Below are positions 9,077 to 63,976 of a stretch of DNA of 64,000 nt, piece by piece. Position 1 is the first letter of the stretch. Every line of letters begins with the position of its first letter. The notes under the pieces are model-generated. The model was not told the origin of the DNA, made no database searches, and worked only from the letters and a program-made list of their open reading frames with translations. The position numbers and the translations under genes were made by a program. Origin of the DNA: Eledone cirrhosa (lineage: Eukaryota); assembly GCA_964016885.1 (NCBI GenBank), contig OZ024757.1, forward strand, positions 10,850,001 to 10,914,000, given 5' to 3'.

Positions 9077-10122
9077 TATATTGTCAATTATGATTGTATT
9101 TAATGTAGCCTATCTACCTGTATATATATATATACTTGCGTATAATATCAATATACACACTACACATGCTAGCAGAAAACCTCCCAAAGGTAGCATGTGT
9201 AGTGTGTATATTGATATTATACGCAGGTATATACATACATGTATCATATATACCTGTGTATAATATCAATATACACACTACACATGCTACCTTCGAGTGG
9301 TTTTCTGCAAGTTCATATAACGGAAGTTGTTTCTGAATGTAATAAATTATGAGGGGGACTTTTAAGTCATGACACCGGTTTCAACTAGACGGTGAAATAT
9401 TACCATTTATATCTGCTCCATTGTTACAACTTAAACCTCATCTAATTTTATCTTTTATGGTGATTATTTCATATTAAGGTGGACGTTAATGTTTGTAAAT
9501 AACATAAGGTGACTTATTTACCTTATAGTTGTTGTTTTATCACCTGTATTATTAAATATTGAAGCGGTTGTTCAACATTTTACAGGACTAGAAAATATTA
9601 TTTTAATCAGAAATCAGTGAACATTTAGTTTTTACTAACTTTTCTTGACTTTATATTTGATCTTGAGAACTAAAGTACGTATTATTTCGTTTTCCACCAC
9701 AACACAAACATTGTGAACTTTTCTATCTGAAGTGAAATATCTTGATTTATTACAACACCTACACACATACGTCTATTTATTTCTCTCTCTTATACCTACA
9801 CACTGTATGTCTGTATATATATTAACCTTCATCTTTTGAAATTATGGATATTAATTCTCTTGTCACCTGAACTGTCCTCAATAACAAGAACCTTAACTAT
9901 AGAAGTCTTATTCGTCTGTTTTATGAGCTGAGGATTTTATTGTTAATAGAGCTTCTCTCACCTTAACAAAAATAAAAAAAATATACACACACACACATGT
10001 GTGTATATATATATACACACTTCCAAGATCAGTCTTACCCTTTCATACATCTTATTACTTTACCAACTGAATGCTACATTTCTTAATATATGAGTGGAAG
10101 TGGTGAGATTCCTTTATGAAAT

Positions 10123-10566
10123 ATGTCTGAATATAACTGTGTGATTTGCAGGAAAACTTTCTCTTCAAAACTGAAACTATCCTCACACGAGAAAATACAC
10201 AGTAGAGAAAAACCCTTCCACTGTGAAACATGTGAGAAATCTTTTACTGATAATTCTGCTCTTGTCGTCCACATACGGAGTCACACTGCAGAAAAACTCT
10301 TCCATTGTGAAATATGTGGGAAATCTTTTACTAATAATTCTGCCCTTGTTATCCCCATACGGAGGCACACTGGAGAAAAACCCTTCCACTGTGAAATATG
10401 TGGGAAATCTTTTTCTGAGAGTTCTCATCTTGAACGTCACAAAAGAATACATACTGGTGAAAAAACTTATGTGAAATATGAGGTAAATCTTTCACTCAGA
10501 ATTCGTCACTGGTTGTTCACCTACGTAGTCAACAGTTGTGGTAAACCCTATCACTGTGAAATATGA
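10123..10566 (+). CDS. C2H2 zinc-finger gene or pseudogene with a decayed 3' array
   Basis: Fingers 1, 2 and 4 are intact CxxC..HxxxH with TGEKP-like linkers. Finger 3 has His-to-Pro. Finger 5 is frameshifted with TGA (EI*GKSFTQNSSLVVHLRS). Finger 6 is truncated. Confidence 0.8.
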   Translation: MSEYNCVICRKTFSSKLKLSSHEKIHSREKPFHCETCEKSFTDNSALVVHIRSHTAEKLFHCEICGKSFTNNSALVIPIRRHTGEKPFHCEICGKSFSESSHLERHKRIHTGEKTYVKYEVNLSLRIRHWLFTYVVNSCGKPYHCEI

Positions 10567-13757: not shown

Positions 13758-14481
13758 TGTTCTTCCTCTCTATATTTCTTCTCTCTCCTTCTCTGGAAGT
13801 AATCAACTGTTCCACCCTGGTGAGTGAAGGGCTCCACCAAGCTTCAAATGTCCACAGTGGTACCCCTATGACTCCATCAGTGCAAGAAAAACAAAACAAA
13901 ATATGAATGTATTTATTTTATAAACCTTAACTGGTTTATATTCATATTTGTGACAAAATATCCACATTTATGTTTAAATAAAAACAATTTTACAACTTTA
14001 ATATTTGTTGGATGGTACGGTCATGACAGTTCAAATTAGGACTTTTAAAAAAAATTAACATTTGAAAATACTTTACAACTTTCTTCTCTTTATCTTTATC
14101 CATTCCTGAGAGGGTTTTAGTGGGTAGAGTCCTCACACACCCCTTCTAGGTCCTATGTTTGTAAAGTTTCCTCTATATACTACACACACACAAAACCACA
14201 TCACTCTGCACACACACACCACATCCCACACAACGGACACACATCATCCCACACCACACCACACCACATACAAACCAGGTAGTTATACTAACCCAGTATC
14301 TTGGTTTTAGTGATTTTTTTGTAACAAATCTCAACATCCCAGACCTTAGCAAGTGGAGTGGAACTCATCAGATTGGATATTAAATGATGAGCTGTTACAT
14401 CATTTGTGTCAACCTGTTTCAGCCATTCCTTTGGACAACATTATAGTGTATGTATGTAGTATATATATATATATGTATGTA

Positions 14482-14526
<45 letters not shown>

Positions 14527-14564
14527 TTATTCATATATATATACATATATATATAGAGAGAGAG

Positions 14565-14595
<31 letters not shown>

Positions 14596-14601
<6 letters not shown>

Positions 14602-17600
14602 TTAGAAACACACAGATACATGCGGACACACACATATATACATGAATGCATCCGCACCCAACTGTGAGTTAAGGGTGCCAACTTCACCGATGTTGCTCAA
14701 TGAATGACTGGGACAGACCAATTCAGTTTGAACCAGACTGAACCAGTATCAGAGTTAAAAATACATTATGAAGAGAGAAGAAACATTTAGATATAATTAG
14801 TAATAAAATGTATCATACCTAAACTGTTCCTAAATTCCTCGACTACGTAGTTTCGTGGCATAAACAAAAACAATATATCAAAGATATAGAGTCCTTGCGA
14901 GGTCTGCCGACTTATCAAGAGGATACCTCATTTTACTAGTCTCAAGAACGCGTCTACACGACGTGAGAAAGAATCCCAAAAGGCGGAGGGGGAGATAGTC
15001 ACGCGATATAACGGTCGAGAAACAGAGCTAAGCCTCTTATAACCACGAAAAAAATACCACGGAGGCGGAGGGGGTATTCATATCGAGGCCGTAGAAGAGG
15101 TAGTGAAGAAGGCGAGAAGTATGAGTAATGGAAGCTTTCCAGTTGTCCCCACACTTCAAAGATTGCTCGACCAGAGGGAGTTATTAATACATTTAGAAAC
15201 ACACAGATACATGCGGACACACACATATATACATGAATGCATCCGCACCCAACTGTGAGTTAAGGGTGCCAACTTCACCGATGTTGCTCAATGAATGACT
15301 GGGACAGACCAATTCAGTTTGAACCAGACTGAACCAGTATCAGAGTTAAAAATACATTATGAAGAGAGAAGAAACATTTAGATATAATTAGTAATAAAAT
15401 GTATCATACCTAAACTGTTCCTAAATTCCTCGACTACGTAGTTTCGTGGCATAAACAAAAACAATATATCAAAGATATAGAGTCCTTGCGAGGTCTGCCG
15501 ACTTATCAAGAGGATACCTCATTTTACTAGTCTCAAGAACGCGTCTACACGACGTGAGAAAGAATCCCAAAAGGCGGAGGGGGAGATAGTCACGCGATAT
15601 AACGGTCGAGAAACAGAGCTAAGCCTCTTATAACCACGAAAAAAATACCACGGAGGCGGAGGGGGTATTCATATCGAGGCCGTAGAAGAGGTAGTGAAGA
15701 AGGCGAGAAGTATGAGTAATGGAAGCTTTCCAGTTGTCCCCACACTTCAAAGATTGCTCGACCAGAGGGAGTTATTAATACATTTAGAAACACACAGATA
15801 CATGCGGACACACACATATATACATGAATGCATCCGCACCCAACTGTGAGTTAAGGGTGCCAACTTCACCGATGTTGCTCAATGAATGACTGGGACAGAC
15901 CAATTCAGTTTGAACCAGACTGAACCAGTATCAGAGTTAAAAATACATTATGAAGAGAGAAGAAACATTTAGATATAATTAGTAATAAAATGTATCATAC
16001 CTAAACTGTTCCTAAATTCCTCGACTACGTAGTTTCGTGGCATAAACAAAAACAATATATCAAAGATATAGAGTCCTTGCGAGGTCTGCCGACTTATCAA
16101 GAGGATACCTCATTTTACTAGTCTCAAGAACGCGTCTACACGACGTGAGAAAGAATCCCAAAAGGCGGAGGGGGAGATAGTCACGCGATATAACGGTCGA
16201 GAAACAGAGCTAAGCCTCTTATAACCACGAAAAAAATACCACGGAGGCGGAGGGGGTATTCATATCGAGGCCGTAGAAGAGGTAGTGAAGAAGGCGAGAA
16301 GTATGAGTAATGGAAGCTTTCCAGTTGTCCCCACACTTCAAAGATTGCTCGACCAGAGGGAGTTATTAATACATTTAGAAACACACAGATACATGCGGAC
16401 ACACACATATATACATGAATGCATCCGCACCCAACTGTGAGTTAAGGGTGCCAACTTCACCGATGTTGCTCAATGAATGACTGGGACAGACCAATTCAGT
16501 TTGAACCAGACTGAACCAGTATCAGAGTTAAAAATACATTATGAAGAGAGAAGAAACATTTAGATCTCTGGTCGAGCAATCTTTGAAGTGTGGGGACAAC
16601 TGGAAAGCTTCCATTACTCATACTTCTCGCCTTCTTCACTACCTCTTCTACGGCCTCGATATGAATACCCCCTCCGCCTCCGTGGTATTTTTTTCGTGGT
16701 TATAAGAGGCTTAGCTCTGTTTCTCGACCGTTATATCGCGTGACTATCTCCCCCTCCGCCTTTTGGGATTCTTTCTCACGTCGTGTAGACGCGTTCTTGA
16801 GACTAGTAAAATGAGGTATCCTCTTGATAAGTCGGCAGACCTCGCAAGGACTCTATATCTTTGATATATTGTTTTTGTTTATGCCACGAAACTACGTAGT
16901 CGAGGAATTTAGGAACAGTTTAGGTATGATACATTTTATTACTAATTATATCTAAATGTTTCTTCTCTCTTCATAATGTATTTTTAACTCTGATACTGGT
17001 TCAGTCTGGTTCAAACTGAATTGGTCTGTCCCAGTCATTCATTGAGCAACATCGGTGAAGTTGGCACCCTTAACTCACAGTTGGGTGCGGATGCATTCAT
17101 GTATATATGTGTGTGTCCGCATGTATCTGTGTGTTTCTAAATGTATTAATAACTCCCTCTGGTCGAGCAATCTTTGAAGTGTGGGGACAACTGGAAAGCT
17201 TCCATTACTCATACTTCTCGCCTTCTTCACTACCTCTTCTACGGCCTCGATATGAATACCCCCTCCGCCTCCGTGGTATTTTTTTCGTGGTTATAAGAGG
17301 CTTAGCTCTGTTTCTCGACCGTTATATCGCGTGACTATCTCCCCCTCCGCCTTTTGGGATTCTTTCTCACGTCGTGTAGACGCGTTCTTGAGACTAGTAA
17401 AATGAGGTATCCTCTTGATAAGTCGGCAGACCTCGCAAGGACTCTATATCTTTGATATATTGTTTTTGTTTATGCCACGAAACTACGTAGTCGAGGAATT
17501 TAGGAACAGTTTAGGTATGATACATTTTATTACTAATTATATCTAAATGTTTCTTCTCTCTTCATAATGTATTTTTAACTCTGATACTGGTTCAGTCTGG

Positions 17601-19339
17601 TTCAAACTGAATTGGTCTGTCCCAGTCATTCATTGAGCAACATCGGTGAAGTTGGCACCCTTAACTCACAGTTGGGTGCGGATGCATTCATGTATATATG
17701 TGTGTGTCCGCATGTATCTGTGTGTTTCTAAATGTATTAATAACTCCCTCTGGTCGAGCAATCTTTGAAGTGTGGGGACAACTGGAAAGCTTCCATTACT
17801 CATACTTCTCGCCTTCTTCACTACCTCTTCTACGGCCTCGATATGAATACCCCCTCCGCCTCCGTGGTATTTTTTTCGTGGTTATAAGAGGCTTAGCTCT
17901 GTTTCTCGACCGTTATATCGCGTGACTATCTCCCCCTCCGCCTTTTGGGATTCTTTCTCACGTCGTGTAGACGCGTTCTTGAGACTAGTAAAATGAGGTA
18001 TCCTCTTGATAAGTCGGCAGACCTCGCAAGGACTCTATATCTTTGATATATTGTTTTTGTTTATGCCACGAAACTACGTAGTCGAGGAATTTAGGAACAG
18101 TTTAGGTATGATACATTTTATTACTAATTATATCTAAATGTTTCTTCTCTCTTCATAATGTATTTTTAACTCTGATACTGGTTCAGTCTGGTTCAAACTG
18201 AATTGGTCTGTCCCAGTCATTCATTGAGCAACATCGGTGAAGTTGGCACCCTTAACTCACAGTTGGGTGCGGATGCATTCATGTATATATGTGTGTGTCC
18301 GCATGTATCTGTGTGTTTCTAAATGTATTAATAACTCCCTCTGGTCGAGCAATCTTTGAAGTGTGGGGACAACTGGAAAGCTTCCATTACTCATACTTCT
18401 CGCCTTCTTCACTACCTCTTCTACGGCCTCGATATGAATACCCCCTCCGCCTCCGTGGTATTTTTTTCGTGGTTATAAGAGGCTTAGCTCTGTTTCTCGA
18501 CCGTTATATCGCGTGACTATCTCCCCCTCCGCCTTTTGGGATTCTTTCTCACGTCGTGTAGACGCGTTCTTGAGACTAGTAAAATGAGGTATCCTCTTGA
18601 TAAGTCGGCAGACCTCGCAAGGACTCTATATCTTTGATATATTGTTTTTGTTTATGCCACGAAACTACGTAGTCGAGGAATTTAGGAACAGTTTAGGTAT
18701 GATACATTTTATTACTAATTATATCTAAATGTTTCTTCTCTCTTCATAATGTATTTTTAACTCTGATACTGGTTCAGTCTGGTTCAAACTGAATTGGTCT
18801 GTCCCAGTCATTCATTGAGCAACATCGGTGAAGTTGGCACCCTTAACTCACAGTTGGGTGCGGATGCATTCATGTATATATGTGTGTGTCCGCATGTATC
18901 TGTGTGTTTCTAAATGTATTAATAACTCCCTCTGGTCGAGCAATCTTTGAAGTGTGGGGACAACTGGAAAGCTTCCATTACTCATACTTCTCGCCTTCTT
19001 CACTACCTCTTCTACGGCCTCGATATGAATACCCCCTCCGCCTCCGTGGTATTTTTTTCGTGGTTATAAGAGGCTTAGCTCTGTTTCTCGACCGTTATAT
19101 CGCGTGACTATCTCCCCCTCCGCCTTTTGGGATTCTTTCTCACGTCGTGTAGACGCGTTCTTGAGACTAGTAAAATGAGGTATCCTCTTGATAAGTCGGC
19201 AGACCTCGCAAGGACTCTATATCTTTGATATATTGTTTTTGTTTATGCCACGAAACTACGTAGTCGAGGAATTTAGGAACAGTTTAGGTATGATACATTT
19301 TATTACTAATTATATCTAAATGTTTCTTCTCTCTTCATA

Positions 19340-19345
<6 letters not shown>
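14596..19345. repeat. Inverted tandem array of 591-bp units: 3.3 copies (14596-16565, ribozyme on minus) plus 4.7 copies (16566-19345, ribozyme on plus)
   Basis: The same 75-aa ORF recurs every 591 bp on minus (x3) and then plus (x4). No differences between copies seen on inspection. Junction tagat|ctctgg at 16565/16566. Both outer ends run into (TA)n. Confidence 0.97.
16819..16906 (+). ncRNA. Type I hammerhead ribozyme in the 591-bp unit. Plus copies also at 17410, 18001, 18592, 19183; minus copies at 14836-14923, 15427-15514, 16018-16105
   Basis: Stem I TCCTC/GAGGA; core TTGATAA (U3:A8); stem II GT(C)GGCA/TGCCAC enclosing 44 nt; GAAA; palindromic stem III ACTACGTAGT; GUC cleavage triplet ending at 16901. 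Confidence 0.82.
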
Positions 19346-19382
<37 letters not shown>

Positions 19383-19487
19383 TTATACATATATAGAGAT
19401 TATATATATATATATAGATTATATTTAAATATATATAGAGAGAGATTATATATATATATATAGAGAGAGATCATATATATATATTTG

Positions 19488-24861: not shown

Positions 24862-27800
24862 TATATTTCTTTATTTACCATAAAGGCATAAAAAGAAGGG
24901 GAGTTTACATACAATCGAGTAAAAAGGGTGTAACATGAAAATAATCGAAAATAACCTCAAAAGGGAGGGGATGTGATGGGGGTTGCACACACCCCCGAAA
25001 AAGTGTGCAATCCTTTGCCCGGGGAGCACATGGAGAAGGTGCTCCCCTCTCCTTTACTTCTTTACCTACAGGATGGTATACAGAGAAGGCCCATTTACAC
25101 GAGCCATTCTCGCCACTATCACCCACCTTTCATAAAACTGTCTGTGGCCAACCACCTCTCTCTCCATTCTTATCCTTCTTCCGAAGTGATATCGGAAGAA
25201 GTAGACCAGACTATGGGCAGAAAGGAAGTTGCCTGACCTCAGACCTTTCAATCGTGTCCACCAAACAACCTCTTTCAACATGGCTATTACGCACAGAAAA
25301 ACCGCCTTTGCTTCCTTTGTGAAGAGGGGAGGTGGTTTGATTGTCATCACGGACTCGGCGGTCAATTGAATCGGCGCCAGCCGCGACAGCAGTCATTCGG
25401 CGTAGCCCCACAGATCAGCCACGCCCGGACATTGCACCAATGCGTGCGCAACGGTTTCTTCGTGACGCACGCATCTAGGGCAAATCTTTTTTGAGGGATC
25501 CCTGCCCGGGCGCCCGTGTCTGTAGAGCCTCTCTCAAACGGGTAGAGCCCCTCGGTAGCACTGCCAGGCCAGTGACTTCTGGAAGTTGTCCATTGGTCCT
25601 GGGCCGAAAGTCCTACCGAACAGGCTGGCCAGTTCGTCTTCTTCCATGTCCAGCGACTCTCCAAGGGTGTCATCGCCCCTGCTAGCCACCAGCCCTCTAT
25701 AGAATGATGAGGTGGATTCTCCACCGATGGCCTGGCCCGCTTGCCAGAGAGCCCTGAGCGCCTGAGCACACTCAGTGTGCCAGTCTCCCAGTTTTCCGGA
25801 TCTTTGCTTGACCCAGGACTGTAGCTCGGTGAGCGAGACGAGTCTCGGAAAGGCTCGTTTCACGAACGGAGCCCACACCGGTTGACCAGTGAGGAATACC
25901 TGTAGGTGCCGTAGCCTTAATGCGTGCCTACGCATCATCAACCACGGCATCCCCAGCCCTCCTTTCGAAGGTTGTTGGCAGCAGATGGATCTTCTCACCA
26001 TAGGAGGGCGCTTCTTCCAAAGAAATTGGAAGAGCATGCGTTCCATGGTGGTGAGTGTTTCCTTAGGGCAAGGCACGACAGTCAGGCGGTAGTAAGTGAC
26101 GGACGCTATGTAAATGTTCGCCACCTCCGCCCGGCCTTTTAGGGACAGCTTACACTTGGCCCATTTCTGGGTTAGTGCAAACACCTTGTTCGTAACCTCG
26201 TTCCAGTTCTTTTCCACCTGGAGGTCCGGTCCAAACCAGACCCCAAGCAACTTTACCGGGCCCTCCGTCCAGTGTCCGACGACACCGTCGGGAGGCATCG
26301 GTCTGCCTCTCCACGTTCCGAGTTGCAGCCCGATGGATTTTTCCCGGTTCAGTTTCGCTCCTGACAACCTTTCGTACTCCTCCAGTAAGGTACCGATCGC
26401 CTCGATCTCCGAGTCGGTCGATACCATTACTGTTACGTCATCGGCGTAGGCCGACACCGCTTTGTTCAATCCTGGTTCCAGGGGGATACCCTGCAACAAC
26501 TCCAACTTCCTCAGTAAAGGCTCGAGAGTCAATACGTACAGAAGGGAGGAGAGAGGGCACCCCTGTCGAATGGATCGTGTGATTTCGAACGGCTTCGAAA
26601 GGTAGCCGTTCACCTTGATCCTAGAACAGATGTGGTTGCTATGTAAGGCAGTGATCCAGCCTCTGAAAACAGGACCGAACCCAGCCGCCGCTAGCACCGC
26701 ATCCAGGTAACCATGGTCTACCCTATCGAAGGCCTTAGACTGATCTAAGTGGATCAGGGCCCCACCGAAGCCGGGTTTGTTGCCAACCCTCTCTATGATG
26801 TATCGCATGAGGTGGAGGTTATCGTGAATGGACCTGGATGGGATAGCACATGTCTGCGCATCTCCCACCAGGCCACCCACGACAAGCGCCAACCTCTTTG
26901 CTAACACCTTGGCCAAAATCTTTAACTCTGTGTTTAGCAGGGTTATGGGCCGAAAATTATTTATACTATCTCCCTTGTTCTCGTCCTTCCTCACCAGCGT
27001 GACTACACCCTTGGCTACAGAACAAGGAATTCTCCCGTTCTGCTGCCAATTGAAGTAGACCGCTTCGAGGAGTTCGGAGAAGAAGACCGGCATTGCTAAA
27101 TAAAGTTCGTAAGGTATACCATCGAGACCTGGAGATTTGCGTCTGCTGCATTGGCTCAGCGCATCTCCGATCTCATCAGCCGAGATTGGTCCCTCGCAGG
27201 ACTCTGCCTCTTCGCTCGAGAGACGCGGCAGGCCGTCGAGGTATGGACCGAAATTCACGCCCCCGCCCGGACCCTCGCCTCCCCCGAACAATCGGGCAAA
27301 GTGCCTTTGAAAGGCCTCGCACATCTGCTTAGGCTCCCGGATCACCCGTCCATCTTCGTCTTGCAACGACCGGATGGTGGATCGATTTCCACTCTTAGCT
27401 TCTGTCACGCGGGCCCAGCCAACGGCTTTGGCCCCCTCATTACCTAGAGCACGTATTTTATTTCGAATGACGCAGCCTTCGTGCTTTGCATCGAAAAACT
27501 GGTTCAAGGCCGTCCTCGATGCCAGCACTCTGGGCACATCTTCGCTCTTGATTGCCTCTTCTAATTTACCTGTTAATTCTTTCTCGTTTCTATTCCTATC
27601 GGCAGCTAACATCTTGCTATAACTTATTGATTCTGTTCTAATCTCTCTTTTGAGAGATGCCCACCATCGGTTGTTGACGATTGCACCCGTCAACCTCTCC
27701 TTAACTAATCTGCTAATCCGGTTTCTGTAATTCTCTTTTGCCGGTAAAGACAAATTAAGTTTCCAGTAACCGAGACCCTGTTTATGTGTTTTCTCGAGAT

Positions 27801-30646
27801 TGACTACGCAGGTCACTAATTTGTGATCCGTATAGCCAACCGTGCGCATTTCTGGACAGCTTAATATGTCCCTATCCTTACTTCTAACTAAGAATCTATC
27901 TAAGTACGATCTAGATTGACCACTGTGGTTTCTCCAAGTCCAGGTAGGCACAGTTGGAAAATCTAGTCGATATCTATCGACCAAGTTAAAACGGTCTAGT
28001 AACCCCTTGAGGCTGTTACACCCCCCTCTATTAGGACATGCTCCTGCATAGTCCCAACGTGCATCTAGGATGTCATTCCAATCCCCCGCTAGAAGCAGGG
28101 ATCGCGACGTTCCCAGAAAAGTCTCCAAACGCTGGAAGAAGTCGGGCCGTTCAGCTCCGAAAGGGGAGTAGACGGCGACCAGTCTCAAGGCCGCACCTTC
28201 ACTACTGCCAACGTCTAGCACCAACAAACGACCCTCCGGGTCCGAGTGCACAACCTGTACGGCAAGACCCAGGTGTTTTTGCAGCAGTACGACAACCCCA
28301 CCCCCACCTCCAGGTTGACAGAGAGATGCATGCACCTCAAAGTCATCGAAGGTGGGGGCCAGCTGCCGCACGACGCTGATTCGAGTCTCACAGATAACCA
28401 TTACATTTATACCACATGACCTGAGGTCATTTAGAAGCTTTGCTTGCTTCCAAGTTGAGCCCAGGCCACGTGCATTCAAACATCCTACTCTGAACACATC
28501 CATGTGGGCGACAGAGCCAAAGGAGAGTGTAGAGACCTACCTTTCCGCTTCCCGGGGTTCGGGTTGCACGACTTCCATGGGGTCGGGGGTGTTGGGTGAA
28601 GGGGTGTCTTGTGGTGGTGTGGGGTCGTCAGTGTGTGGTGGGGTTGGGGTGTTTGGAGTTGTGTTGGGGAGGGGAAGGGGAGGGGCAAAGATTTTTAGTA
28701 GGACACGGTTTATGGGTTTGACAGAGGGTGGTCCTACGTCCTCCTTAAAATCCTTTTTTAGTTTTTGGTAGAGGTTCATTGGGATCTTTATTAATTTTAA
28801 ATGTGGGTAGTTTTCTGAAGAAACAAAGTTTACACCTTCGGTTTGTACCGAAGGATTATTGTTTATGAGTTCATTTAATTTATTATTGTTTCTGTTGATG
28901 TAAGTATAGTGTAATGTCTTTTTTTCGGATGGTGTGAGTGTTTCGAAGAGGGGAGGGGCAGGTTTGGTTTTGTTTGTTGCTGGAGGGGTGTTTTCTGTTT
29001 TGTTGGGTTGTGTTGAGATTTGGGTGGGGGTTGTTTGGCCTTGTGTGTTTTGCACATGTTTTCTTTTTTCCTTTTAATCTGTCTGAAGGACTCCGTTTCT
29101 TCCTCCGAATTCGTTGGAGGGAAGAGGTATGTTTGCTGGTAATGTTTCCGTGTTGGTTTTCTTTGTGGGGGAGATGGATGTAACTATGTTAGACTGTGTT
29201 GTGTGTTGTGTCTGCGGTGGTTGTGTTGTTTTATTGAGTGAGGGGTTGGGTGGGCCTATATTTTGTTTTGGGGTAATGTGTTGTGACTGTTTGTGTTGTG
29301 GTGGTGGTGTGGTTTTATTGAGGGACGGGTTGGGTGGGACTGAGTTTTGTTGTTTGTTTATCTGTTGTGGTGGTGGTGGTGGAGCTGGTGTTGGTAGCAG
29401 GGTTTTCTTTTTGTTGAGTTGGGGACAAGCGGCCTTCAGGTGCCCTCTGCCTGCACAGATATGGCAAGACGGCCTTCTCCCCTCCACGCTAATGTTTATA
29501 TACCCGTGGCCCTCTAATAGGATTCTGTCGGGCGATGCGTTCAGGCTTCATTTGCACTACCAGCTCCATACCTGTTCCACTGAACGCATTGCCTGTGGTT
29601 TTCCCAATGGAAATCACGTTGTCATTCACTGGATCGATGAAGCCAGCTATGAGCCAGCAGTAGTTCACATCTGGCATCATTGCATCCAGCCATATGCGTT
29701 GAGTTCTTTTACCCATATAAGATGGATAAAAGGTAAAATTTTTCGAACGAATCGGTGACAAAGCACATTTTTTTTGCCGCCGATTCGTTCTTCATGATAA
29801 TTGCTAGGCTTCCATACAGTCTGTCTTTTCTTATGAAAGTGGTTTCATTAAGTACTTCTGTGAGTACTGTTTTGATATCTGCTTGAGAAGGCTGTTCAGG
29901 TTTTTTTGAAGTGTTGTTGATGGTGCGGAACACAACCGTTCTACTTTCAATGTCTTTGGTGAGTTCTTGAGGCATTTTTACCGATAAAATACCATTCTCT
30001 CCTTCACTTATGTATTGTTTGGCGTCTGTGATTCTTCGTGCCACATCTGAAATATTTTCGGGTACATATGTCAAAGATTTCTTTGTTGTTTGTGCAAATG
30101 AATTCTTGACTCTGTCGTCTGCTTTGCTTTCTGTTATGGTGTTATTTTCAAATGTTATTTCTGTGTTTGTTGTGTCTTTGTTTGTGGTGTTAGTATTGTC
30201 ATGCAATTTTTCAAATTTTTTTTTTTCGTTGTTGGAATCCATGTCCAGATTTGTGTTTTCGTCATTTTTCTCCGCAGATTCGTCTGTTTTTATTTTAATT
30301 TTTCCTTCCTTCTCTATGACGTTAGTTGGGAAGGAAGGGGGGGGGGGGACTAAAGCGTGCGAGCTTACAACTCTTACCGCTGCCCCCCCACCACTATTTT
30401 CGTTCGCTTCGTTCAACATTTCTGTCAGACGATTGAAATTTTTTTGCCACAAAATTTTTTAAAACAGGTTTTTCACCTCTAGGAGAGGTAAAGATGAGCT
30501 GACCCACCGTCTGACAGTTCAGACGGGGGGTCAAGCTACACAATGGTATCAAAATTAAATTTGAACTCACGAAATTTCCGTAATAAATTTGAACAAAACT
30601 TCTGCGTGAAGTGAATTACATCCACACTGTAGAACAGACGACAGCT
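24862..30646 (-). mobile_element. Near full-length Tx1/L1-clade non-LTR retrotransposon
   Basis: Fragmented ORF1 (28537-30452) with CCHC knuckle CHICAGRGHLKAAC. ORF2 25534-28503 plus a frameshifted zf-RVT tail. Both ends abut (GATA)n. Confidence 0.95.
25534..28503 (-). CDS. Tx1/L1 ORF2: APE endonuclease plus reverse transcriptase (989 aa, truncated before zf-RVT)
   Basis: LNARGL, GDWN, SYLDRF, TDH (EN); KSPGLDG, NFRPITLLN, DQSKAFDRVDH, RQGCPLS, YADD (RT). Confidence 0.93.
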   Translation of the reverse strand: MDVFRVGCLNARGLGSTWKQAKLLNDLRSCGINVMVICETRISVVRQLAPTFDDFEVHASLCQPGGGGGVVVLLQKHLGLAVQVVHSDPEGRLLVLDVGSSEGAALRLVAVYSPFGAERPDFFQRLETFLGTSRSLLLAGDWNDILDARWDYAGACPNRGGCNSLKGLLDRFNLVDRYRLDFPTVPTWTWRNHSGQSRSYLDRFLVRSKDRDILSCPEMRTVGYTDHKLVTCVVNLEKTHKQGLGYWKLNLSLPAKENYRNRISRLVKERLTGAIVNNRWWASLKREIRTESISYSKMLAADRNRNEKELTGKLEEAIKSEDVPRVLASRTALNQFFDAKHEGCVIRNKIRALGNEGAKAVGWARVTEAKSGNRSTIRSLQDEDGRVIREPKQMCEAFQRHFARLFGGGEGPGGGVNFGPYLDGLPRLSSEEAESCEGPISADEIGDALSQCSRRKSPGLDGIPYELYLAMPVFFSELLEAVYFNWQQNGRIPCSVAKGVVTLVRKDENKGDSINNFRPITLLNTELKILAKVLAKRLALVVGGLVGDAQTCAIPSRSIHDNLHLMRYIIERVGNKPGFGGALIHLDQSKAFDRVDHGYLDAVLAAAGFGPVFRGWITALHSNHICSRIKVNGYLSKPFEITRSIRQGCPLSSLLYVLTLEPLLRKLELLQGIPLEPGLNKAVSAYADDVTVMVSTDSEIEAIGTLLEEYERLSGAKLNREKSIGLQLGTWRGRPMPPDGVVGHWTEGPVKLLGVWFGPDLQVEKNWNEVTNKVFALTQKWAKCKLSLKGRAEVANIYIASVTYYRLTVVPCPKETLTTMERMLFQFLWKKRPPMVRRSICCQQPSKGGLGMPWLMMRRHALRLRHLQVFLTGQPVWAPFVKRAFPRLVSLTELQSWVKQRSGKLGDWHTECAQALRALWQAGQAIGGESTSSFYRGLVASRGDDTLGESLDMEEDELASLFGRTFGPGPMDNFQKSLAWQCYRGALPV

Positions 30647-36539: not shown

Positions 36540-37218
36540 TAATTTATTTATAAAGTGGATATTTCCACATTTAATAATGGCACTGGGTTCAGCATTATAT
36601 ACATTGTCAATTGTGGATATACATAATATCGTTAAGTTGCATATTTATACAAATAATAATTGTTTCTACTTTTGGCACAAGGCCAGCAATTACCCAGTAC
36701 ATTACTGGTACTTTATTATTTATACAAATAATAATTGTTTCTACTTTTGGCACAAGGCCAGCAATTACCCAGTACATTACTGGTACTTTATTATTTATAC
36801 AAATAATAATTGTTTCTACTTTTGGCACAAGGCCAGCAATTACCCAGTACATTACTGGTACTTTATTATTTATACAAATAATAATTGTTTCTACTTTTGG
36901 CACAAGGCCAGCAATTACCCAGTACATTACTGGTACTTTATTATTTATACAAATAATAATTGTTTCTACTTTTGCACAAGGGCTGCAATTACCCAGTACA
37001 TTACTGGTACTTTATTTTATCGACCCCGTAAGTCGATAAAATAAAGTACCAGTAATGTACTGGGTAATTGCTGGCCTTGTGCCAAAAGTAGAAACAATTA
37101 TTATTTGTATAAATATGCAACTTAACGATATTATGTATATCCACAATTGACAATGTATATAATGCTGAACCCAGTGCATTATTAAATGTGGAAATATCCA
37201 CTTTATAAATAAATTAAT
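36540..37218. repeat. Fold-back (centre about 37028) whose left arm holds five 75-bp tandem copies of the family-A SINE tail
   Basis: Period 75 bp at 36661/36736/36811/36886/36961; centre ttttatcgac-cccgtaa-gtcgataaaa. Confidence 0.9.
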
Positions 37219-38190
37219 TGTTTCTACTTTTGGCACAAGGCCAGCAATTACTCCAGTACTTTATTTTATCGACCCCGTTAGGCCAACAATTACCCCAGTA
37301 CTTTATTTTATCGACCCCGTACGGCCAGGAATTACCCCAGTACATTATTTTATCGACCCCGTAAGACCAGCAATTACCCCAATACATTATTTTATCGACC
37401 CCGTAAGGCCAGCAATTACCCCAGTACATTATTTTATCGACCCCGTAAGGCCAGCAATTACCCCAGTACTTTATTTTATCGACCCCGTAAGGCCAGCAAT
37501 TACCCCAGTACATTATTTTATCGACCCCGTAAGCCCAGCAATTACCCCACTACTTTATTTTATCGATCCCGTAAGGCCAGGAATTACCCCAGTACTTTAT
37601 TTTATCGACCCGTAAGGCCAGCAATTACCCCAATACATTATTTGATCGACCCCGTAAGGCCAGCAATTACCCCAGTACTTTATTTTATCGACACCGTAAG
37701 GCCAGCAATTACCCCAGTACTTTATTTTATCGACCCCGTAAGGCCAGCAATTACCCCAGTACATTATTTTATCGACCCCGTAAGGCCAGCAATTACCCCA
37801 GTACTTTATTTTAGCGACCCCGTAAGGCCAGCAATTACCCCAGTACTTTATTTTATCGACCCCGTAAAGCCAGGAATTAACCCAGTACTTTATTTTATCG
37901 ACCCCGTAAGGCCAGGAATTACCCCCAGTACTTTATTTTATCGACCCCGTAAGGCCAGGAATTACCCCAGTACTTTATTTTATCGGCCCCCCCGTAAGGC
38001 CAGGAATTACCCCAGTACATTATTTTATCGACCCCGTAAGGCCAGCAATTACCCCAGTACATTATTTTATCGACCCCGTAAGGATGAAAGGCAAAGTTAA
38101 CCTCAACGGGATTTGAACTCAGTCTGTAAAGGGAGGTAACTGCTGGAAAGCATGGCGTCCGACCCTCTACCGATACTGCCAATCCACCTA
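37219..38190 (-). repeat. Family-A SINE with an internal 42-bp segment amplified about 20 times (minisatellite about 37238-38080)
   Basis: Unit taccccagtactttattttatcgaccccgtaaggccagcaat; SINE head intact at 38080-38190. Confidence 0.9.
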
Positions 38191-39480: not shown

Positions 39481-42400
39481 GTGGTAGTGTACAAGTCACA
39501 ACAAAAGCACCCAGTCCACTCTGTAAAGTGGTTGTGTAGGTGTCACAACAAAGAGATCCAGTCCACACTGTAAAGTGGGCATGTAGGTGTCACAACAAAA
39601 AGTAACCAGTCATTATTCATTATTGTAAAGTAGTTGTGTAGGTGTCATAACAAAAAGTACCCAGTCCACTCTGTTAAGTAGATGTGTAGGTGTCATGACA
39701 AAAAGCATCCAGTCCACACTGTAAAGTGTTTGTGTAGGTGTCACAACAAAAACGACCTAGTCCACTCTGTAAAGTGGAAGTGTAGGTGTCATAACAAAAA
39801 GCACTCAGTCCACACTGTAAAGTCGTCATGTAGGTGTCATGACGGAGAGTAACCAGTCCACACTGTAAAGTGGTTGTGTAGGTGTCATGACGGAGAGTAA
39901 CCAGTCTACACTGTAAAGTGGTCATGTAGGTGTCACAACAAAAAGTACCCAGTCCACACTGTAAAGTGGTTGTGTAGGTGTCATGACGGAGAGTAACCAG
40001 TCCACACTGTAAAGTGGTTGTGTAGGTGTCATGACGGAGAGTAACCAGTCCACACTGTAAAGTAGTCATGTAGGTGTCACAACAAAAAGTACCCAGTCCA
40101 CACTGTAAAGTGGTTGTGTAGGTGTCATGACGGAGAGTAACCAGTCCACACGGTAAAGTAGTCAAGTAGGTGTCACAACAAAAAGTACCCAGTCCACACT
40201 GTAAAGTGGTTGTGTAGGTGTCATGACAAAAAGCACTCAGTCTACATTGTAATGTAGTTGTGAAGGTGTCATGACAAAAAGCACCCAGTCCACTCTGTTA
40301 AGTGGATGTGTAGGTATCATGACAAAAAGCACTCAGTTCACACTGTAAAGTAGTCATGTAGGTGTCACAACAAAAAGTACCCAGTCCACACTGTAAAGTG
40401 GTTGTGTAGGTGTCATGACAAAAAGAACCCAGTCCACACTGTAAAGTGGTCATGTAGGTGTCATGACAAAAAGAACCCAGTCTACATTGTAATGTGATTG
40501 TGTAGGTGTCATGACAAAAAGCACCCATTCCACACTGTAAAGTGGTCATGTAGGTGTCATGACAAAAAGCACCCAGCACACACTGTAAAGTGGTCATGTA
40601 GGTGTCATGCCAAAAAACCCAGACCACTCTGTAAAGTGGTCATGTAGGTGTTACAAAAAGAGCACCCAGTCTACTCTGTAAAGTGGTCATGTAGGTGTCA
40701 TGACAAAAAGCACCCAATCCACACTGTAAAGTGGTTGTGTAGGTGTCATGACCAAAAGCACCCAGTCCACACTGTAAAGTGTTTGTGTAGGTGTGACAAC
40801 AAAAAGGACCCAGTCGACTCTGTAAAGTGGTTGTTTGGTGTCATAACAAAAAGCACTCAGTCGACACTGTAAAGTGGATGAGTAGGTTTTACAACAAAAA
40901 GCACCCAGTCCATTCTGTAAAATGGTTGTGTTGGTATCATGGCAAAAGGCACCCAGTCCACTCTGTAAAGTGGTTGCGTTGGTGACACAACAAAAAGAAC
41001 CCAGTCCACTCTGTAAAGTTGATATTTTGGTGTCATGGCAAAAAGCACCCAGTCATTATTGCAAAGTGGTTGTATAGGTGTCAAAACAAAAAGCAACCAG
41101 TCCACACTGTAAAGTGGTTGTGTAGGTGTCACAACAAAAAGCACTCAGTCCACTCTGTAAAGTGGTCATGTAGGTGTCATGACAAAAAGCACCCAGTCCA
41201 CACTGTAAATGAGGGTGGTATTAGGAAGGACATCCAGCTGTAGAATAAGCTAAAATCAGTTTTGTACGAACAAGACCTGGTCACCTGACTTGCCCACAAC
41301 AAGACAACAGGTCTAACCCATGCTAGTGTGGAATAATGGATGTAAACCAGTGATGATGATCTACTCATCATGTCATATATATTGACATGATGATTCTGTT
41401 ATGGAATTACAATAAACACATGCCTGGTTGTGGAATACTCAGCCATAAACATATTATTTGTGGTGTGTTAGTATATGTGTGTGAGTGTAAGTTACCCTGT
41501 GTGGGTGTGTGGTAGAATGAATGTACATACGTGCTGTGTGTCTTCTCTAATATATCAATATGAAGAGAACACTTGACCTTACTTAATCAATGTTTTGTTC
41601 AAAGTGAAGATACAGTTTTGTTTCACAATAAACAACTTTGATAACATTCTATTTAAGTTTTTGTCTATATCAATCTGTCATCATCATCATCAACAACTTT
41701 TAACATGCTAGCTGGAGCTTAATTGTCCCCAAAAGCAACCAGTCCACACAATAAATTGGTCATGTAGGTGTCATGACAAAAGCACCCTGTCCACACTGTA
41801 AAGTGGTTATGTAGGTGTCATGACGGAGAGTAACCATTCCACACTGTAAAGTAGTCATGTAGGTGTCACAACAAAAAGTACCCAGTCCACACTGTAAAGT
41901 GGTTGTGTAGGTGTCATGACAAAAAGCACTCAGTCTACATTGTAATGTGGCTATGTAGGTGTCACAACAAAAAGGACCCAGTCCACACTGTAAAGTGGTC
42001 ATGTAGGTGTCATGACAAAAAGAACCCAGTCTACACTGTAAAGTGGTCATGTAGGTGACATGACAAAAAGCACCCAGTCCACACTGTAAAGTGGTCTTGT
42101 AGGTGTCATAACAAAAAGCACCCAGTCTACATTGTAATGTGATTGTGTAGGTGTCATGACAAAAAGCACTCAGTCCACACTGTAAAGTGGTCATGTAGGT
42201 ATCATGACAAAAAGCACCTAGCCCACACCGTAAAGTGGTCATGTGCCAAAAAACCCAGACCACTCTGTAAAGTGGTCATGTAGGTGTCACAAAAAAAGCA
42301 CCCAGTCTACTCTGTAAAGTGGTCATGTAGGTGTCATGACAAAAAGCACCCAGTCCACTCCCTAAAGTGTTTGTGTAGGTGTCAGAACAAAGCACCCAAT

Positions 42401-45400
42401 CCACACTGTAAAGTGGTTGTGTAGGTGTCACAACAAAAAGCACCCAGTCCACCCTGTAAATTGGTTGTGTAGGTGTCACAACAAAAAGCACCCAGTCGAC
42501 ACTGTAAAGTGGTTGTGTAGGTGTCATGACCAAAAGCACCCAGTCCATACTGTAAAGTGTTTGTGTAGGTGTCACAACAAAAAGGACCTAGTCCACACTG
42601 TAAAGTGGAATTGTAGGTGTCATAACAAAAAGCACTCAGTCCACACTGTAAAGTCGTCATGTAGGTGTCATGACGGAGAGTAACCAGTCCACACTGTAAA
42701 GTAGTCATGTAGGTGTCACAACAAAAAGCACCCAGTCCACACTGTAAATTGGTTGTGTAGGTGTCATGACAAAAAGCAATCAGTCCACACTGTAAAGTGG
42801 TCATGTAGGTGTCATGACAAAAAGAATCCAGTCTACATTGTAATGTGGTTGTGTAGGTGCCATGACAAAAATGACCCAGTCCACACTGTAAAGTGGTCAT
42901 GTAGGTGTCTTGACAAAAAGCACCCAGTCTACACTGTAAAGTGGTCATGTAGGTGACATGCAAAAAGCACACAGTCCACATTGTAAAGTGTTCATGTCGA
43001 TGTCATGACAAAAAGCACCCAGTTCTCACTGTAAAGTGGTCATGTAGGTGTCATGACAAAAAGTACCCAGTCCACTCCCTGAAGTGTTTGTGTAGGTGTC
43101 ACAACAAAGCACGCAGTCTAAACTGTAAAGTGGTTGAGTAGGTGTCATGACAAAAAGCACCAAGTCTACACTGTAAAGTGTTTGTTTAGGTGTCATGACA
43201 GAAGCACCCAGTCCACACTGTAAAGTGGTTGTGTAGGTGTCATGCAAAAAGCACCCAGTCCACACTGTAAATGAGGTTGGCGTTAGGAAGGACATCCAGT
43301 TGTAGAATAAGCTAAAATCAGTTTTGTACGAACAAGATATGGTCACCTGACTTGCCCACAACAGGCCAACAAGTCTAACCCATTCTAGTGTGGAATAATG
43401 GATGTAAACCAGTGATGATGATCTACTCTGTCATATATATTGACATGATGATTCTGTCATGGAATTACAATAAACACATGGCTGGTTGTGGAATACTCAG
43501 CCATAAACATATTATTTGTGGTGTGTTAGTATATGTGTGTCAGTGTAAGTTACTCTGTGTGTGTGGTATAATGAATGTCACAAGTCACAACAAAAGCACC
43601 CAGTCCACTCTGTAAAGTGGATGAGTAGGTTTCGCAACAAAAAGCACCCACTCCATTCTGTAAAATGGTTGTGTTGGTATCATGTCAAAAGGCACCCAGT
43701 CCACTCTTTAAAGTGGTTGCGTTGGTGTCACAACAAAAAGAACCCAGTCCACTCTGTAAAGTTGATAAGTTGGTGTCATGACAAAAAGCACCCAGTCATT
43801 ATTGCAAAGTGGTTGTGTAGGTGTCACAACAAAAAGCACCCAGTCCACACTGTAAAGTGGTCATGTAGGTGTCACAACAAAAAGCACCCAGTCCACACTG
43901 TAAAGTGGTTGTGTAGGTGTCATGACAAAAGCACCCAGTCCACACTGTAAAGTGGTTGTGTAGGTGTCACAACAAAAACACCCAGTCCACACTGTAAAGT
44001 GGTCATGTAGGTGTCACAACAAAAAGCACCCAGTCCACACTGTAAAGTGGTTGTGTAGGTGTCATGACAAAAGCACCCAGTCCACACTGTAAAGTGGTTG
44101 TGTAGGTGTCATGACAAAAGCACCCACTCCACACTGTAAAGTGGTTGTGTAGGTGTAATGACAATAAGCAGCCAGTCCACACTGTAAAGTGGTTGTGTAG
44201 ATGTCACAACAAAACACCCAGTCCACACTGTAAAGTGCCCATGTAGGTGTCACAACAAAAGCACCCAGTCTACTCTGTAAAGTGTTTGTGTAGGTGCCGC
44301 AACAAAAACACCCAGTCCACCATGTAAAGTGGTTGTGTAGGTGTCACAAAAAAGCACCCCGTCTACACTGTAAAGAGGTTGTGTAGGTGTCACAACAAAA
44401 ACACCCAGTCCACACTGTAAAGTGATTGTGTAGATATCACAACAAAAGCACCCAGTCCACACTGTAAAGTGGTCATGTTGGTGTGACAACAAAACACCCA
44501 GTCCACACTGTAAAATGGTTGTGTAGGTTTCGCAACAAAAAGCACCCAGTCCACTCTGTAAAGTGGTCGTGATGGTATCATGACAAAAGGCACCCAGTCC
44601 ACTCTGTAAAGTGGTGTGTTGGTGTCTCAACAAAAAGCAACCAGTCCACTATGTAAAGTGGATGAGTAGGTTTCGCAACAAAAAGCACCCACTCCATTCT
44701 GTAAAATGGTTGTGTTGGTATCATGTCAAAAGGCACCCAGTCCACTCTGGAAAGTGGTTGTGTTGGTGTCACAACAAAAATCACCCAGTCCACTCTGTAA
44801 AGTTGATGTGCTGGTGTCATGACAAAAAGCACCCAGACATTATTGCAAAGTGGTTGTGTAGGTGTCACAACAAAAAGCACCCAGTCCACACTGTAGAGTG
44901 GCTGTGTAGGTGTCATGGCATTAGGAAGGACATCCAGCTGTAGAATAAGCTAAAATCAGTTTTGTACGAACAAGACATGGTCACCTGACTTGCCCACAAC
45001 AGGCCAACAAGTCTAACCCATGCTAGTGTGGAAGAATGTGTGTAAGCCAGTGATGATGATCTACTCTGTCATATATATTGACATGATGATTCTGTTATGG
45101 AATTACAATAAAAACATGCCTGGTTATGGAATACTCAGCCATAAACATATTATTTGTGGTGTGTTAGTATATGTGTGTGAGTGTAAGTTACCCTGTGTGG
45201 GTGTGTGGTAGAATGAATGTATATACGTGCTGTGTGTCTTCTCTAATATATCAATATGAAGAGAACACTTGACCTTACCTAATCAATGTTTTCTTCTAAG
45301 TCAAGATACAGTTTTGTTTCACAATAAACAACTTTGATAACATTCTATTTAAGTTTTTGTCTATATCAATCTGTCATCATCATCATCAACAACTTTTAAC

Positions 45401-46318
45401 ATGCTAGCTGGAGTTTAACTGTCCCATTAGATGGCTGAATGAAAAGTTGTTGATGATGATGATGACAGATTGATATAGACAAACACTTAAATAGAATGTT
45501 ATCAAAGTTGTTTATTGTGAAACAAAACTGTATCTTGACTTTGAAGAAAACATTGATTAGGTAAGGTCAAGTGTTCTCTTCATATTGATATATTAGAGAA
45601 GACGCACAGCACATATGTACATTCATTCTACCACACACCCACACAGGGTAACTTACACTCACACACATATACTAACACACCACAAATAATATGTTTATGG
45701 CTGAGTATTCCACAACCATACATGTGTTTATTGTAATTCCATGACAGAATCATCATGTCAATATATATGACAAAGTAGATCATCATCACTGGTTTACATC
45801 CATTATTCCACACTAGCATGGGTTAGACTTGTTGGCCTGTTGTGGGCAAGTCAGGTGACCATATCTTGTCCGTACAAAACTAATTTTAGCTTATTCTACA
45901 GCTGGATGTCCTTCCTAACACCAACCTTATTTACAGTGTGGTTGGCTCCGTTTTGTCATGACGCCAACATGACCACTTTACAGTGTGGACTGGATGTTTT
46001 TGTTGTGACACATACACAACCACTTCATAGTGTAGACTGGGTGTTTTTGTTGTGACACCTACACAACCACCTTACAGTGTAGACTGGGTGTTTTTGTTGT
46101 GCCACCTACATGACCACTTTACAGCGTGGACTGTGTGTTTTTGTTGTGACACATACGCAACCACTTTAGAGTGTAGACTGGGTGTTTTTGTTATGACACC
46201 TACACAACCACTTTACAGTGTGGACTGGGTGCTTTTGTTATGACACCTACATGGCCACTTTACAGTGTGGACTTGGTGTTTTTTGTTATGACACCTACAC
46301 AAACACTTTACAGTGTGG
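39480..46318. repeat. 47-48-bp satellite derived from the RTE 3' UTR: three direct blocks plus one inverted block, each ending in LINE tail plus shared flank
   Basis: Unit aaaaagcacccagtccacactgtaaagtggttgtgtaggtgtcacaac. Tail+flank at about 41215-41730, 43275-43577, 44915-45427, and inverted at 45442-45930. Confidence 0.92.
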
Positions 46319-62600: not shown

Positions 62601-63976
62601 AGGGGTTGTCATTATATCTATCGTCATAGTTGTGTGTGTTGCTATTGTTGTTTCTATCATTAGCATTATTATTATTGTTATGATTGCTAGATGTATTGTT
62701 GTTTACTTCACCGTTATTGTTGTTGTTGTTACTGTTATTTCTATCATTGTGGTTGTTACTATTATTATGTTTCTTGTTTTTGTTGATGTTGCTACATGTA
62801 CTATTTCCATTATTACCACTGTGGTTATTGTTGTCGTTGTTCGTATTGTTACCGTTATTACTACTGTGGTCACTGTTGCTGTGTCTGTGGTTAACGTTTC
62901 TATTATTATTATTATTGTGGTTGTTGTTGTTCCGTCTATCGCTAGTATTATTGCCTTTATCACTATTTCTCACTTTCCTGCCATTGTTATGGTTATGGCT
63001 GTTATTTCTATACCCAGAGTTATTGTTTATATTACTACTACCGTTATTATTGTTGTTGTTGTTTACCTTTGCATTCCAACGTATTTTTGTGAAACACTTT
63101 TCCAGCTCCGTTTTGCATTCCATAGGGTTAATCTTTTTATAGATGGCAAATTTTGGTGGTAACCGTAGGATTTGTTGTTCTTATTCACTGATTAAAGTGT
63201 TCCCATAGATATTTACTGTGTGGTCATTGGTAAATTCTTCCGGTAGTTTTACATCAGTCATACGGATATTGTCGATGTTATCTGGGTATGTTATCATAGG
63301 AATGACCCAGCAGATAGGCAAATCAGAGAGGCCAGTGAAATAGAAATTAGAAGACCAAAGCTAAACAGAAAGAATTAGTGGAACAACAACAACACCCAAA
63401 CAAACAACACTGACCTAAGAGAAGTATAAATAAGTAAATAAATAAAATAAAATAAAATAAGATAAATAAATACATACACAAGCACAATAACAACAAGCAC
63501 ATAAACACACACTAGTCACCCAGCAGACACAACACTATACACACTAGTCACACAGCACACATAACATTATACACACACGCAAACGCATGCGCAAAGAAGA
63601 CAAAATAAAATAAAATAAACAAACAAGCAAATATATAAATAAATATATAGACAGACTGAATAAAAAAAAAAAAAAAAAAAAATGGCGTAGACATACAACA
63701 CAACACGAGGAAAAAAATATAACACCACTGACGATGTTGCAGATGTGCAACGAAAGATTTATGTAAATTATGTAAACTATATATATGTGTTTGTGTCTAT
63801 ATTGTATCTGTATTATTTTTGACCGTCGGTCAGTCAATGTCAACATTGAGGACCGAGTAAGTTAGATCGCAGATATAAAAGACAGCGAGAAGCGAAAACC
63901 AACCAAACAGTGAGTGTGTTCTGTTATTAATTCTGGCAATATTACGCAAATATGACCCTCCCCAAGTATAACAATA
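59631..63976 (-). mobile_element. Penelope-like retroelement (RT plus GIY-YIG endonuclease) with inverted pseudo-LTR at 63295-63976
   Basis: PTDKSG, YGLRKDHK, SMDVVSLYPSI, RYVDD, LPVLD, CxxxxCxxC linker, NVVYSIRC..IYIGET.R..REASEI..PKLN. 63295-63976 is the reverse complement of about 59672-60335. Frameshifts and one TGA present. Confidence 0.93.
63725..63764 (+). ncRNA. Hammerhead motif in the PLE pLTR (mirror copy at 59869-59908, minus)
   Basis: CTGACGA / tGTTGCA-GATG-TGCAAC / GAAA-GATT-TA; stem I only 2 bp. Confidence 0.6.

Follow-up and report, generated by a model that had tools for sequence, protein, structure and literature searches.

The 64,000-nucleotide stretch of Eledone cirrhosa DNA analysed here (contig OZ024757.1, positions 10,850,001 to 10,914,000; hereafter the window) contains a divergent array of tandem 591-bp units, each with a hammerhead ribozyme motif. 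The array is a member of a young, genome-wide, dispersed non-LTR (long terminal repeat) retrozyme family with about 2,000 recent insertions, here named family A. Its insertions end at two fixed internal positions of the unit, and insertions with two arms ending at these positions have one end of each kind. We put the probability that the array is a retrozyme whose copies were primed at these two sites at about 85%. The retrozyme would be non-autonomous and mobilised in trans by an endonuclease-bearing Penelope-like element (PLE), probably one of the Hydra clade.

A preliminary description of the window, made from the sequence alone, had reported 3.3 plus 4.7 apparently identical 591-bp units in opposite orientation within (TA)n. 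This proved accurate, as the two arms hold 3.33 and 4.70 units and, as assembled, show 0 mismatches to the unit at 16902-17492. The type I hammerhead in each unit and the cut positions predicted for it were also correct, and a type I hammerhead accompanies 8 of 8 predicted cut sites in the window. Unit positions (u) are counted from the predicted GUC cut, u1 being position 16902 of the window. Three further proposals of that description, namely the retrozyme identity, a PLE-type insertion into (TA)n and the repeated copying of a monomer template, are supported by the genome-wide data.

The genome searched comprises 3.0 Gb and yielded 615 family A candidates. Among the 40 of them that were scored, many full units are 100% identical and spread over many contigs. 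The u80 end (site A) followed by (TA)n is found at 1,984 junctions genome-wide by an exact pattern. The stricter pattern used for the u245 end (site B) has 143 matches and misses ends at u246-247 as well as subfamily variants. We examined 97 family A loci, which are the window and 36 loci from the similarity search, 40 loci found by the u80 pattern and 20 found by the u245 pattern. The u80 loci were taken nearly consecutively from the start of the list, including one neighbouring pair picked further on, and all 40 belong to family A with 91-100% identity. The u245 loci are 20 of the first 22 listed, the other two being already in the sample.

In these 97 loci the 3' ends lie at u74-90, nearly all of them at u80, or at u240-253, and the only exceptions are three short pieces. 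The 5' ends are scattered. The dispersed arrays that the preliminary description had expected do exist, but the permuted start points expected with them do not, since scatter is seen only at 5' ends. Its view of the two arms as independent events with permuted starts has to be given up, because the 3' ends are fixed at u80 and u245-247, with one of each per insertion. Among the 59 insertions with two arms, 58 consist of a site A arm standing head to head with a site B arm; discounting the two that are duplications inside L064 and L075 leaves 56 pairs. Same-site (homotypic) insertions were found in 0 of 59, and the odd case, L126, has a partner end at u36. The loci sampled without regard to their ends contributed 21 of 21 such pairs, the site A sample 25 and the site B sample 12. 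Under independent site choice the 21 of 21 would have a probability of about 5e-7. Single arms end at site A in 27 cases and at site B in 14. No divergent site-A partner within 20 kb was found among the 100 site-A ends listed. At the inner junctions the arms mostly overlap by 0-8 nt, and all features of PLE-type insertion are present: 5' truncation, an inverted 5' copy, a tail at one end and a microsatellite target.

Sites A and B both read AUGUAU, and pairing with a (TA)n primer is possible. A longer TA match at u198-207 is unused as a 3' end, and therefore the start sites look as if they were selected by structure or protein. Three pairs of single-arm insertions at different loci (L047/L125, L053/L114, L027/L052) have equal length and an equal 5' end, which suggests that stop or annealing sites recur or that duplication took place.

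Near-perfect palindromic tandems are difficult to assemble, and odd variants in one locus (L050) could be polishing errors. Nevertheless an assembly or fold-back artefact is hardly credible as the origin of these arrays, given that the arms are out of register and have different fixed end sites in 58 insertions, that some arm pairs lack any overlap, and that in contigs of another sequencing run (X4) both u80 and u245 are followed directly by (TA)n.

Both arms of a locus appear in most cases to derive from one template. The arm-to-arm distance is 0.6% within a locus (25 loci) versus 2.4% between loci; for 18 of the 21 loci that could be tested, no arm from elsewhere lies nearer than the locus partner. 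The strict pairing and the shared template are the new part of these results. Arm lengths within a pair are uncorrelated (rho 0.03, 56 pairs). In L1 twin priming one arm halts at the primer site of the other; this was not seen here, and both arms run past the start site of the other in 33 of 56 pairs. Two loci, L072 and L123, have arms without common sequence, so that neither arm was copied from the other and fold-back copying is excluded there.

Within the arms the variants indicate repeated copying. Thirty-one locus-private substitutions, in 18 loci, are fixed in all covering units. L092 carries five private substitutions in 7-8 of 7-8 units of both arms, and a 26-nt deletion is present in 2 of 2 units of L172. 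The predicted cut site is crossed 281 times, five times with a substitution and never with an insertion or deletion. Only 3 of 157 arms stop at the cut versus 2.9 expected, and the pile-up of 5' ends at the cut that linear monomers predict is absent among these 157 arms. The scar-free crossings and the private fixed variants therefore indicate a template which is continuous through the cut and usually like a repeated monomer. Arms reach up to 7 units, and 50 of the 99 arms picked by end are longer than one unit.

The circularised 591-bp unit has stops in all six frames and lacks an open reading frame (ORF) for the reverse transcriptase (RT) with C-terminal GIY-YIG domain that characterizes autonomous Hydra-clade PLEs. 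Its circular sense strand is more stably folded than shuffled sequences (z -4.9; antisense z -0.7). An endless ORF or an ambisense viroid-like circle was considered and rejected because of these stops, the branched fold and the hammerhead core on one strand only.

The hammerhead consists of helix I (u509-513/u1-5), the core TTGATAA, helix II (u521-527/u572-577) enclosing a hairpin of 44 nt, GAAA, and helix III, which is palindromic. Its U3-A8 core is a known covariant in the PLE hammerheads of Cercyon (PMC4209133; published work is drawn on here in excerpts). These share the core covariation and the palindromic helix III suiting dimer cleavage, but helix II is about 45 nt longer here and the motif lies in a non-coding tandem unit. 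Rfam reports no hammerhead for the array, only weak microRNA-type matches far under the gathering scores. The hand-built hammerhead fold of u501-u12 has -21.5 kcal/mol and lies within 1.1 kcal/mol of the minimum free energy (-22.6 kcal/mol). A pattern search for ribozymes with a short helix II found no short-loop relative except one deletion array. In the predicted monomer fold of family A and its sister family B, u1 pairs with u70-71 and u583-587 with u74-79. This fold is predicted to keep the cut ends together, to block the ribozyme and to set site A beside the cut junction. In PMC7229834 such blocking is reported for few metazoan circles. Other recurrent type I hammerheads, with CTGACGA or CTGATGA cores, were noticed in L085, L024, L036, L056, L066, L084 and L089 and mark additional PLE or retrozyme families.

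Two sister families were found. Relatives derived from L085 and L171 had been candidates for coding partner PLEs and turned out to form two retrozyme families of greater age, B and C. For family B, with 1,371 candidates and 25 loci, the consensus is 591 nt long and shares 83% identity with A. Its hammerhead positions are kept in 44 of 44 cases versus 449 of 547 elsewhere (P 1.7e-4), and it disrupts 14 base pairs of the family A fold versus 31 expected (0 of 2000 shuffles); the four two-sided pair changes are alone not significant. In family C, with 493 candidates and 18 loci, the unit of L185 is 590 nt long and shares 60% identity with A; the changes in its helices I and II are compensatory, and its helix III contains an 8-nt palindrome that differs from that of A. 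The patterns of substitution in these sister families indicate selection at the RNA level on the hammerhead and the fold. Both are homologous to A along the entire unit and non-coding, the longest stop-free runs of A, B and C being 86, 93 and 70 aa, and the short and long ends of family A are also seen in them. A unit of about 590 nt is kept in the B and C loci (L127-L151, L173-L192) despite 16-40% divergence and many indels, where B is represented by a consensus seeded from one 591-nt unit and C by a single unit. At least 3 of the 18 family C loci (L189:1819-2010, L174, L180) contain a repeat of about 190 nt near u230 (site B) which resembles a short interspersed element (SINE); in L189 it sits within a complete tandem unit.

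We also looked for PLEs that could supply the enzyme. A Hydra-type PLE protein gave 89,710 first-look candidates in the genome with many open frames of about 760 aa, which suggests that the Hydra clade is very abundant. An autonomous element of this type is present in L074:2801-6512 and L077:2305-4581, with RWR, DKT, CxCX5C, CxxC and CxH motifs and, at the C-terminus, a GIY-YIG-type domain; the retrozyme thus coexists with an endonuclease-bearing (EN+) PLE in the same genome. The L074/L077 family has a long 3' region containing a microsatellite, its own hammerhead with a GUA cut, and (TA)n targets. Its ends lie at +22 and about +92 after the cut, with 3,617 and 5,163 exact junctions, and of its divergent pairs within 8 kb, 23 combine the two kinds of end and none repeats one kind (68 + 100 listed ends overlapping on C1). 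In ORF motifs, hammerhead and (TA)n targets it corresponds to the Hydra-clade PLEs of PMC8557442 (section 11), and it follows the same pairing rule as the retrozyme. Two further Hydra families (L166-L171) have frames of 781 and 778 aa, the former with many near-identical copies. Full-length head-to-tail tandems occur in the 781/778-aa families, with a spacing of 3115 and 3017 bp (L167:1955-7412; L169:1980-7330). The Hydra frames are unrecognised by Pfam; one of them was placed among PLE-like clusters in Atlas, and a Hydra frame has 616 homologues at about 40% identity, which yielded no clade name. The Hydra clade is the likely source of the enzyme that would mobilise the retrozyme.

The behaviour of these elements bears on the idea that the unit is a terminal repeat of a coding PLE and not an independent element, which the preliminary description had named as a possible refutation. 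Retrozymes derive from PLE terminal repeats according to bioRxiv 10.64898/2026.07.22.740005, and the ends and the target of family A behave as those of the Hydra PLE. Against this, none of the arms leads into an ORF in the 97 loci of family A, families B and C are as non-coding as A over their entire unit, and similarity to the three coding Hydra families inspected, out of many, is lacking, which makes this explanation very improbable.

The following mechanism would account for the insertions. The arrays would be transcribed, and the hammerhead, probably as a dimer formed through the palindromic helix III, would free 591-nt monomers, whose fold would hold both ends together and then block the ribozyme; a host ligase would close them into circles. 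The PLE protein would cut (TA)n, and both DNA ends would prime RT internally on a single template, from u80 at one end and from u245-247 at the other, as in the genomic pattern; a dimer with one subunit per site may be responsible. Each RT would pass the cut junction and go on copying over a random distance independent of the other, the observed lengths reaching up to 7 units. Joining of the far ends of the complementary DNA (cDNA) with 0-8 nt of microhomology would give the head-to-head pair with a 165-nt tail on one arm, and where only one end is extended, the single arms that are observed would result. A circular monomer as the usual template, and with it the full circular model, is in our view rather probable; northern blots demonstrated the circles of PMC7229834 and of the bioRxiv preprint, whereas we infer circles and self-cleavage from genomic sequence.

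Several points weigh against this model. Private variants at a coverage of at least 3 units comprise 65 single, 13 fixed and 10 partial ones (L064 and L075 left out). L043, L050 and L054 carry a variant in one unit per arm where a monomer circle predicts otherwise. L050 (G000:C2:338171114-338177763), which is the largest array with 7.2 + 4.05 units, has two variants once per arm in an order reversed between the arms, and this fits no single template. The partial and one-unit-per-arm variants therefore indicate that multimer templates, conversion or later unit duplication occur too. In L065 a helix I break is present in all units. Fold prediction gives helix I of the single-copy hammerhead a probability of about 0.001 in a longer nascent context, which suggests that cleavage would probably depend on dimers or on assistance by a protein. 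The end-closing fold of families A and B was not recovered in the single family C unit that was folded, and the unit has no sequence similarity to a coding PLE in the three Hydra families inspected (L074/L077, 778-aa, 781-aa). From published work, only 1 of 9 retrozyme dimers was cleaved in vitro (bioRxiv 10.64898/2026.07.22.740005), and in PMC11167929 cleavage was dispensable and the main template was unprocessed RNA.

Part of this evidence would be explained if the same two-site priming by a PLE took place on long uncleaved multimeric transcripts or on multimer circles, with the ribozyme rarely active or used in another step. The dominance of unprocessed RNA in vitro, the disfavoured single-copy fold and the ten partial variants are in line with it, as are L043 and L054, which can be explained by a multimer in which both RTs read the one variant unit, and scar-free crossing of the cut site fits equally. 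Such templates would require a homogeneous source array for each private haplotype, yet 18 loci have their own fixed variants. Moreover, 5'-truncating copies of linear arrays only shorten, yet the arms reach 7 units, and three families persisted across 40% divergence. We therefore regard multimer templates as the general rule as unlikely, although they deserve consideration.

The same variants can be read at the DNA level, as the result of short insertions that were later expanded and homogenised by unequal exchange and gene conversion; a satellite model for retrozyme arrays is discussed in bioRxiv 10.64898/2026.07.22.740005. L113 and L105 have variants common to two of three units in one arm, the single-unit variants in both arms could be conversion tracts, and segmental duplications exist (L064, L075). 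This origin is nonetheless improbable, as the youngest loci already have 3-7 units with few or no changes, the 65 single-unit private variants persist beside the 13 fully fixed ones, and half of the arms picked by end exceed one unit.

Taken further, the circular model would describe PLE integration as an asymmetric, two-ended reaction, in which one dimer uses one circular RNA with two fixed sites and both subunits roll with strand displacement, the circle of about 590 nt being a long-lived, size-constrained RNA replicon. In its boldest version the circle may even move between species, given the near-identical copies in sequencing runs of 17 coded organisms. We hold this only tentatively. If true, the asymmetric two-ended reaction would give PLE tandems, inverted copies and tails a common explanation.

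Tandem cDNA from circles and mobilisation by PLEs were proposed in PMC7229834, and bioRxiv 10.64898/2026.07.22.740005 connects retrozymes with the terminal repeats of PLEs, gives a unit range of 51-972 bp and argues for local amplification. The unit of 591 nt, which had seemed unusually large for a metazoan retrozyme in the preliminary description, lies within this range. Family A resembles the metazoan non-LTR retrozymes of these two papers in its non-coding tandem type I hammerhead units, its dispersal, its unit size and the presence of PLEs; the excerpts of both contain no insertion-end anatomy, fixed start sites, head-to-head arms or template variant test. For PLEs, PMC11167929 describes in vitro extension of both DNA strands from two internal RNA sites and predicts a dimer, and PMC8557442 and PMC3846280 describe inverted copies with a tail of 30-40 bp at one end. 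Ribozymes are unmentioned in the excerpts of PMC13282606. Head-to-head 5'-truncated copies, a one-end tail, AT-rich targets, two internal RT starts and extension of both strands are common to our insertions and those of EN+ PLEs (PMC8557442, PMC3846280) or PAc in vitro (PMC11167929). In contrast to EN+ PLEs, the tail here has 165 nt and not 30-40 nt, the cargo is non-coding and the arms comprise several units; in contrast to Hydra-clade PLEs, the retrozyme has no ORF and no sequence match to the three families inspected. PMC3846280 ascribes inverted copies to self-priming, which is contradicted here by the non-overlapping arms.

In the literature searched, with subscription papers and supplements outside its scope, we found no prior description of a cephalopod retrozyme, nor of the start-site pairing rule, the shared template or variant evidence for repeated copying. 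The unit size range and inverted arms with a tail are already known; the insertion anatomy and a testable mechanism are new. Tandem and inverted PLE insertions with a tail are named as an open problem in PMC8557442, and the spread of retrozymes to new loci is a model without direct support in the excerpts of PMC7229834 and bioRxiv 10.64898/2026.07.22.740005. Family A offers about 2,000 recent, readable reaction products plus a small 591-nt substrate with two mapped start sites, which makes the questions of one site per DNA end, of a common template and of a circular versus linear template testable. An RT able to place multi-copy cDNA at the two ends of a break, with a circular RNA as its template, would also be of interest for RNA-templated insertion tools.

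A near-identical unit is listed for 20 sequencing runs from 16 studies and 17 coded organisms, and contigs of four of these runs (X1, X2, X4, X8) were examined. In X4 the family reaches a very high depth, (TA)n follows both u80 and u245, and family B-like pieces occur, which is independent support for both ends. X1, X2 and X8 have low-depth contigs with the majority alleles of the family and no (TA)n junction listed. Trace DNA is the simplest reading of these three, diet or horizontal transfer being alternatives. A 621-nt self-closing contig of X1 was not counted as evidence because a tandem array yields it as well as a circle. As to expression, no RNA run is among the 20 runs listed as containing the unit.

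The coordinates of the array are given in Table 1. The tail, a concept taken from PMC11167929 and PMC8557442, contains a long hairpin (u173-u232). The two outer array ends each read ...AATGTA and are followed by (TA)n, and a target duplication is indistinguishable within the (TA)n repeat of the right flank.

Table 1. Features of the retrozyme array in the window.
Feature	Position	Strand	Remarks
Left target flank	14460-14595		(TA)n-rich
Left arm	14596-16565	minus	1970 bp, 3.33 identical units; 3' end u245 (site B), 5' end u49
'Tail' separating the two start sites	14596-14760	minus	165 nt (u81-u245); outer end of one arm only
Left-arm hammerhead	16018-16105	minus	predicted cut after 16023; again at 15427-15514, 14836-14923
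Head-to-head junction	16560-16571		both arms 5'-truncated; blunt, overlap 0 nt (family mostly 0-8 nt)
Right arm	16566-19345	plus	2780 bp, 4.70 identical units; 5' end u256, 3' end u80 (site A)
Type I hammerhead	16819-16906	plus	U3-A8 core, palindromic helix III; predicted cut after 16901
Reference monomer, cut to cut	16902-17492	plus	u1-u591; non-coding; sense strand structured
Further right-arm hammerheads	17410-17497, 18001-18088, 18592-18679, 19183-19270	plus	
Start site A	19337-19345	plus	...CATAATGTA, end of arm
Right target flank	19346-19484		(TA)n-rich

Two CTCCGCC motifs with a TATA-like word between them lie at 17253-17263 and 17343-17353 (u352-362, u442-452); families A and B retain them, and C does so in part. 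We take them to be GC-box-like and a possible internal promoter.

The window also contains other features. A PLE-like element at 60201-63180 (minus strand) has a C-terminal GIY-YIG-like stretch and an asparagine-rich segment, which resembles the N-rich inserts described in PMC3846280. An open frame of 1000 aa at 25534-28536 (minus strand), preceded by an upstream frame, resembles the endonuclease-RT ORF2 of long interspersed elements (LINEs), and we presume it to be L1/Tx1-like. The highest-identity named animal match of a LINE protein of the window is from Octopus bimaculoides, with 63% identity over 75% of the protein. At 10120-10566 (plus strand) a frame of C2H2 zinc-finger repeats with an 84-bp period is found. 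Tandem arrays of 75, 42 and 47/48 bp occupy 36642-38083, 39624-44917 and 45951-46318, and the 75- and 42-bp units resemble portions of a common SINE-like repeat.

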